This document shows, in pieces, positions 37,079 through 37,215 of a stretch of DNA of 64,000 bases. The stretch lies in IMG/VR virus record IMGVR_UViG_2718217789_000006. One strand, given 5' to 3'. Position numbers and translations under genes: made by a program. Below the pieces are notes generated by a model. The model saw only the letters and a program-made list of their open reading frames with translations, was not told where the DNA came from and did no database searches. Every line of letters begins with the position of its first letter. Positions within the stretch are counted from its first letter, which is position 1. Source of the stretch: a virus. Its lineage: Duplodnaviria > Heunggongvirae > Uroviricota > Caudoviricetes.

Positions 37079-37215
37079 TAAAAAAAACCGCCAGCGACAG
37101 GAATGGACGCTGGCGGTGGTAATACCTATGGAGAAAAAATAAAGGAACGATACTTTCGTGCTCTGGTTTTTTAAATGAAAACAGTTCTTATTGTCAACAA
37201 TAACGGAAAGAAATT

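Follow-up and report, generated by a model that had tools for sequence, protein, structure and literature searches.

What does a terminator-like hairpin do that stands directly behind a phage esterase gene and points against every gene around it? The window, the 64,000-nt stretch of DNA analysed here, covers the last part of one lambdoid prophage and the greater part of another, and in it such a hairpin lies between nanS-p and the lysis genes. An earlier note had suggested that it may stop antisense transcription entering the late operon. We consider it probable (roughly three chances in four) that the hairpin is the 3′ end of an unannotated gene for an Esr41-like sRNA, located in the slot that the prophage sRNAs PasA and PasC occupy elsewhere (Table 1).

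Read along the plus strand from the nanS-p stop codon TGA (37076-37078), a single T and A8 (37080-37087) are followed by CCGCCAGCG (37088-37096), an 11-nt loop (37097-37107), CGCTGGCGG (37108-37116) and then TGGTAATACC. On the minus strand this amounts to a perfect 9-bp stem with 8 GC pairs and U8 (37087-37080) directly after it, the GC-rich stem and adjoining U tract that define an intrinsic terminator, whereas on the plus strand the hairpin is followed by UGGUAAUACC and not by a U tract. The minus-strand hairpin RNA has a folding energy of -22.4 kcal/mol (z = -4.7, none of 200 shuffles being equally stable) and, as the hairpin is a palindrome, its plus-strand version folds too (-23.5 kcal/mol). 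The built-in terminator scan returned just a 5-bp inner substitute (37100..37088) because its loop limit is 8 nt, the loop of 11 nt being above the usual 3-8 nt. A strict scan, for which the 9-bp arms had to match perfectly and contain 6 or more GC, the loop to measure 3-12 nt and the following 9 bases to include 7 or more T, found four sites on both strands of the 64-kb window together; only this hairpin is on the minus strand, and 100 dinucleotide-preserving shuffles contained no such site. By its sequence the hairpin is a genuine terminator-like element of the minus strand, as the earlier note had proposed. The span given there, 37081-37120, hits the site but starts one base off and ends 4 nt beyond the stem; its placement directly after nanS-p holds, the U8 tract ending 2 nt and the hairpin itself lying 10 nt past the stop codon, and all annotated adjacent genes are on the plus strand as claimed (downstream these are DUF1378, DUF826, holin and lysozyme). 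On this arrangement RNA polymerase moving leftward would be stopped 2 nt short of the nanS-p stop codon, and no antisense RNA over nanS-p would be expected.

Table 1. Features of the predicted sRNA gene and its flanking genes (positions in the window).
Feature	Coordinates	Strand	Basis and remarks
Predicted ~83-nt sRNA, Esr41 paralogue in the PasA/PasC slot	37080..37162	-	Esr41 model, own covariance model, fold, 35-nt rule
-35 box TTGACA	37192..37197	-	Sequence; conserved; 118 nt from here to the tail end
A/T-rich -10-like region TTAAAAA	37168..37174	-	Imperfect; final hexamer position is not T
Predicted 5′ hairpin ACGA-AAGUA-UCGU	37147..37159	-	Fold; CGAAAG motif invariant, pairing register varies by subtype
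Seed core UUCUCCAU, anti-Shine-Dalgarno	37128..37135	-	In the single-stranded U-rich stretch 37128-37146; invariant in the alignment; shared with Esr41
Small second hairpin GGUAUUACC	37118..37126	-	Fold; weak, varies among variants
Terminator hairpin CCGCCAGCG / 11-nt loop / CGCUGGCGG	37088..37116	-	Sequence, folding, strict scan
U8 tract, predicted 3′ end and Hfq-binding tail	37080..37087	-	Sequence
nanS-p-type esterase gene (DUF1737-SASA-DUF6645)	35132..37078	+	ORF, domain architecture; stop TGA 37076-37078 abuts the terminator
DUF1378 gene	37216..37395	+	ORF, domain; start codon 19 nt from the sRNA -35 box on the opposite strand

If the terminator belongs to a gene of its own, leftward transcription would start from a sigma-70-type promoter with its -35 box at 37197-37192. 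A sigma-70 consensus scan did not call the sRNA promoter. In Esr41, PasA and PasC the 5′ end, mapped or modelled, lies exactly 35 nt after the first T of TTGACA, and applying this rule to the TTGACA of the window gives a start near 37162 and an RNA of 83 nt, compared with 85 nt for PasA, 79 nt for PasC and 74 nt for Esr41. Applied to Sakai Sp4, the same rule predicts a start no more than 1 nt from the upper edge of the EcOnc52 Hfq-CRAC peak (coordinates being assumed the same between genome versions). The predicted RNA (37162 to 37080) folds into a 5′ hairpin, a single-stranded U-rich stretch of 20 nt that ends in UUCUCCAU(A), a 3-bp hairpin and the terminator, such that the hairpin and U8 would form the Rho-independent terminator of the ~83-nt sRNA gene and probably its Hfq-binding 3′ module as well.

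When 12 copies taken from the genomes of E. coli and from phages (lowest identity 73%) are aligned, five blocks stand out as conserved: the -35 box, the TTTTCATTTAAAAA region, the CGAAAG motif, TTCTCCAT (37135-37128), which does not vary at all, and the terminator core CCGCCAG/CTGGCGG together with its T run. The hairpin core is without change in all 12 of these BLAST-derived variants, and it is in this set only that the invariance of seed and stem core counts, since the pattern used to search IMG/VR (at least 120 matches) demanded both. Among the matches listed and the fetched loci, 127 of 129 related units with an identifiable -35 box carry a run of 5-9 T (the run is interrupted in the other two). 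In those 127 units the box reads TTGACA 118 times and TTGACT 9 times and lies 113-119 nt from the tail end, and the sequence past the T run falls into four different classes. With its length fixed and the sequence beyond it exchangeable, the unit therefore behaves as a module. The TTGACA box is also present at the PasA, PasC, distal-unit (see below) and Esr41 loci.

Within the subfamily ~90% of cells in the stem are paired, as opposed to 18-66% when the partners are slid, and no significant covariation was detected there (RNAalifold and pair counts) because the stem is nearly invariant. Across families (Esr41, PasA, PasC and the window type) three stem positions have changed on both sides with the pair kept (CG to AU, CG to UA and GC to AU, in either direction) and the Esr41 stem has one A-U to G-U change; these stems were registered by hand on GCCRGC/GCUGGC, as MAFFT misaligned the arms between families. 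All ten hairpins compared across families have folding energies between -14 and -23 kcal/mol. Covariation in the 5′ hairpin was dropped as an argument since the subtypes pair in different registers, and a sigma-28-like CCGATA motif of some variants is absent from the window copy and probably due to chance.

To which known RNA is this unit related? Esr41 (EcOnc14) is a 70-nt Hfq-dependent sRNA of EHEC O157 whose GC-rich palindrome and poly-U are required for Hfq binding, and which acts at the ribosome-binding sites of cirA, chuA and bfr to repress these genes (PMC5286369, PMC9387321, PMC9002310). The Rfam Esr41 model (RF02676) matches the window over its full length at 37156 to 37080 on the minus strand with the terminator and the UUUUCUCCAU stretch in register; the score of 30.9 bits (E 0.013) is far below the Rfam gathering score of 102 bits, and membership by that cut-off is therefore not reached. 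Local alignment of the 123-nt locus with the Esr41 locus resulted in z = 12.6, a score attained by none of 1000 dinucleotide shuffles, and our own covariance model, built from 10 variants, matches 37167 to 37080 in the window and recovers Esr41 at E 0.005. A degenerate pattern scan of genome contigs was dominated by chance hits in GC-rich genomes, and its sole relevant match was a Shigella flexneri copy of Esr41. Esr41 has the same order of elements as the window unit, with a 5′ hairpin, a single-stranded U-rich stretch ending in UUUUCUCCAU, a small hairpin, a GC-rich terminator and poly-U, as well as the same TTGACA box 35 nt before its 5′ end; its terminator arms are CGCCGGCA/UGCUGGCG where the window has CCGCCAGCG/CGCUGGCGG. 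The two differ in the 5′ third and the loop, and the window RNA would be ~9 nt longer. They also differ in location, as Esr41 lies near iha/ter in SpLE1/OI-43,48 with no esterase gene next to it, whereas the window unit lies in a lambdoid late region after nanS-p, and no homology was found between the flanks of the window locus and those of the Esr41 locus of SpLE1. By sequence, then, the unit is a clear but distant Esr41 relative sitting in the Pas slot.

That slot has been characterized in EPEC and EHEC prophages. PasA (NC_011601, 743499 to 743415) and PasC (1290909 to 1290832) are encoded on the minus strand between plus-strand genes, with EcOnc51/52 as their EHEC homologues (Pearl Mizrahi et al., PMC8550237, table S6), and both have been validated by northern blot and are Hfq-dependent (PMC8550237); EcOnc51/52 were Hfq-crosslinked (PMC4104026). 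They lie between the sialic-acid esterase and the holin/lysozyme genes, with PasD/STnc100 upstream of the esterase (Zhu, Shabalina and Storz, bioRxiv 10.64898/2026.05.13.724894). The window has the same order, STnc100 (34708-34908, plus strand, 148 bits) being followed by the esterase, the Esr41-like unit and the lysis genes, and the unit has the same antisense orientation within the same interval from the SASA esterase to the holin. By RNA-seq and northern blot the 3′ end of PasC lies 2 nt past the esterase stop (PMC8550237), as is also seen by comparing its end (1290832) with that stop (1290830), and the U tract of the window lies at exactly this distance from TGA, so that the position of the unit is identical to that of PasC. 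Of the features by which Pas genes are recognized, an intergenic location from esterase to holin/lysozyme antisense to both and a ~80-nt unit with a TTGACA promoter and a GCCAGC...GCUGGC terminator abutting the esterase stop are found in the window unit.

Outside promoter and terminator the similarity to PasA/PasC appears weak at the sequence level. Their TTGACA also lies 35 nt before the 5′ end and their terminator core is GCCAGCG...CGCUGGC, but their body and seed are unlike those of the window unit, as they contain GUACAUCUAYCC and their seed is the terminator arm. When the 123-nt locus was aligned locally with PasC, z was 5.9 (0 of 1000 shuffles); PasA, PasA-2 and the distal unit each reached 4.7 (2-3 of 1000). 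Our covariance model picks out PasC at its exact published coordinates at an E of only 0.74 (3.8 for the distal unit), and the Rfam Esr41 model has no match at Pas loci at E up to 1. BLAST searches with Pas queries would therefore probably miss the window type.

The esterase-holin spacers of E2348/69 PP2, Sakai Sp11 and Sakai Sp12 hold two antisense units in tandem, one of PasA type and a distal one, and Sakai Sp4 holds the distal unit only. In all four of these prophages it is the distal unit that abuts the esterase stop, and all four share its TTGACA box and GCCAGCG...CGCTGGC terminator. It appears that this unit, and not PasA, is the counterpart of EcOnc52 and of the 'minor' 3′ end of PasA. 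In the phage 434 record the PasA and distal positions are marked merely as antisense 'terminator' features.

Two further groups of prophage sRNAs offer a comparison. AsxR/AgvB/EcOnc03 are short anti-sRNAs encoded downstream of pR′ in O157 prophages, and on the same general principle their genes lie in the moron region and converge on the Q-antiterminated late transcript; they differ in position (directly 3′ of stx or Q-proximal), in length (51-60 nt) and in their sponge action, and the AsxR and AgvB models (RF02703, RF02702) have no match in 30000-42000 at E up to 1. HnrS (EcOnc10-12) is also a multicopy, Hfq-associated sRNA of the prophage late region with an intrinsic terminator and a ribosome-binding-site target, in its case hha, which it represses, but it has a different sequence and lies downstream of Rz. 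Identity of the window unit with HnrS is ruled out, as HnrS occupies that other locus and is missing from this prophage. Downstream of Rz, 39542-39728 is 95% identical to Sakai Sp12 (741-927 of the fetched locus) and the homology begins just past the HnrS (EcOnc10) terminator, implying that the prophage is without HnrS though the neighbouring DNA has been kept.

The hairpin may also be considered as an orphan insulating terminator, which blocks stray antisense transcription into nanS-p and the upstream late and moron genes and is part of no functional sRNA. Hairpin and U tract are unidirectional as this would require, the -10 element is weak, the phage 434 record labels such antisense elements plain 'terminator', and read-through in E2348/69 yields a minor PasA species of 236 nt that stops at the corresponding terminator next to the esterase (PMC8550237). 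An insulator, however, could do without an 8-nt single-stranded core that never varies, a -35 box held at 113-119 nt and an Esr41-like fold, and the homologous PasC, EcOnc52 and Esr41 are discrete Hfq-associated RNAs, which leaves this explanation unlikely. Of the antisense block suggested by the earlier note, the stop of leftward transcription before nanS-p is retained and the free-standing insulator is not, since the conserved -35 box, the invariant core and the Esr41-like fold accompany the hairpin in all copies whose flanks could be read. The antisense transcription that the hairpin halts is most likely that of its own ~83-nt sRNA gene.

Somewhat more doubtful still is a role on the plus strand, where the hairpin in the late mRNA would stabilise the 3′ end of the nanS-p message, mark a site for its processing or weakly terminate nanS-p transcription in lysogens. 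The palindrome is perfect, forms on both strands and stands 10 nt past the stop codon, in line with such a role; against it, the U tract is missing on this strand and the minus-strand promoter, the seed and the homology to an Esr41 that has no esterase beside it are left unexplained. A plus-strand role is compatible with the sRNA and could be a secondary function. Finally, the hairpin might be a palindrome that arose by chance, or a scar left by recombination where mosaic modules meet, and have no function as RNA. The mosaic junction formed by the four sequence classes past the T run might speak for this, but it is very improbable given the absence of comparable sites in 100 shuffles, the retention of unit and flanking motifs across variants down to 73% identity and the significant relationship to a characterised sRNA.

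Taking the sRNA gene as the preferred reading, we looked at where else it is found and whether it has been described. Of 5426 complete E. coli genomes, 953 carry the 146-nt locus (median 2 copies, at most 7), as do 305 of 50,697 phage records, mostly those of Stx-converting phages; VT2-Sakai (Sp5) has it at 100% identity and 933W at 96.6%, just after L0105. Among the same 50,697 records PasA is found in 28 and Esr41 proper has no match, which would make the window type the one most often seen in the esterase-holin slot of sequenced Stx phages. The RefSeq, 933W, VT2-Sakai and P13803 records inspected carry no annotation at its position, and the unit is not named in the literature searched. Tree et al. 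(PMC4104026) list no EcOnc at the identical Sp5 copy (~1270638-1270720 in old Sakai coordinates, as calculated), and the CLASH tables of Waters et al., to the extent that they were accessible, hold no reads or coordinates matching the locus. The absence of an EcOnc or CLASH signal is weak evidence, as the element is multicopy and less than 100 bp from coding sequences and pipelines may filter such elements. Esr41, the Pas sRNAs and, more generally, convergent sRNA genes in O157 prophage moron regions were already known. This unit connects two families hitherto treated apart, Esr41 and PasA/PasC, and may account for the small number of Pas genes that the recent Pas survey saw in phage genomes and for its frequent Esr41 hits near PasD (Zhu et al., bioRxiv 10.64898/2026.05.13.724894), as those hits may be this Esr41-like element.

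The predicted gene lies between nanS-p and the lysis cassette and faces the transcription of the Q-dependent late operon. If it is expressed, the single-stranded UUCUCCAU core of its RNA would, by analogy with Esr41, occlude Shine-Dalgarno sequences. In duplex calculations on cirA (-35..+15), which ignore accessibility and can thus only suggest a target, the duplex formed over the SD has an energy of -22.0 kcal/mol for the window seed and of -25.2 kcal/mol for Esr41, with none of 1000 shuffles as good for either, while PasA and PasC do no better than shuffles on the cirA ribosome-binding site. For bfr, the method did not recover even the validated Esr41-bfr pairing and is therefore uninformative on this target.

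It is conceivable, though we regard it as speculative, that Stx and other lambdoid phages (933W, Sp5/VT2-Sakai and hundreds more) bring in a multicopy Esr41 paralogue with the same seed, such that lysogeny delivers Esr41-type regulation to the host and the Esr41 of SpLE1 is a captured copy of the phage cassette. Repression of cirA and possibly chuA would then result in resistance to colicin Ia/Ib and rewired iron uptake, along with effects on motility and the LEE, and Shiga-toxin lysogens would carry a multicopy phage-borne regulator of iron uptake and colicin sensitivity. Between nanS-p and the lysis genes, moreover, the late mRNA is a perfect complement of the predicted sRNA. As the seed complement lies on the plus strand, the late transcript bears a perfect decoy site, and upon induction it could, under the same tentative scheme, sponge the sRNA or be cleaved there, linking the lysogenic and lytic states. 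The seed complement itself (37128-37142, plus strand) reads ATG GAG AAA AAA TAA, a 4-codon mini-ORF with an SD-like GGAG that is probably incidental.

Additional RNA elements were seen elsewhere in the window. Convergent with the STnc100/PasD-type sRNA upstream of nanS-p, a minus-strand terminator at 34916-34937 (GCCCGCG...CGCGGGC and T7) probably belongs to an antisense sRNA of the EcOnc08/21/42 type, which may overlap the start region of nanS-p. Two identical PasB-like minus-strand units lie at 8224-8304 and 54524-54604, each between a tail gene and a J-like gene, with the terminator CCCGCAG...CTGCGGG and a T run; the published PasB northern probe has 3 mismatches to them and the Esr41-like covariance model matches them weakly (E 0.048). 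The tail modules in which they lie (1-16000 and 46000-62000) are near-duplicates, with matching ORF patterns in addition to the identical PasB-like units. Lastly, a sok antitoxin RNA (RF01794) at 28169-28349 on the plus strand scores 61 bits, above the gathering score of 59, indicating that the prophage's early region contains a toxin-antitoxin module of the hok/sok type.
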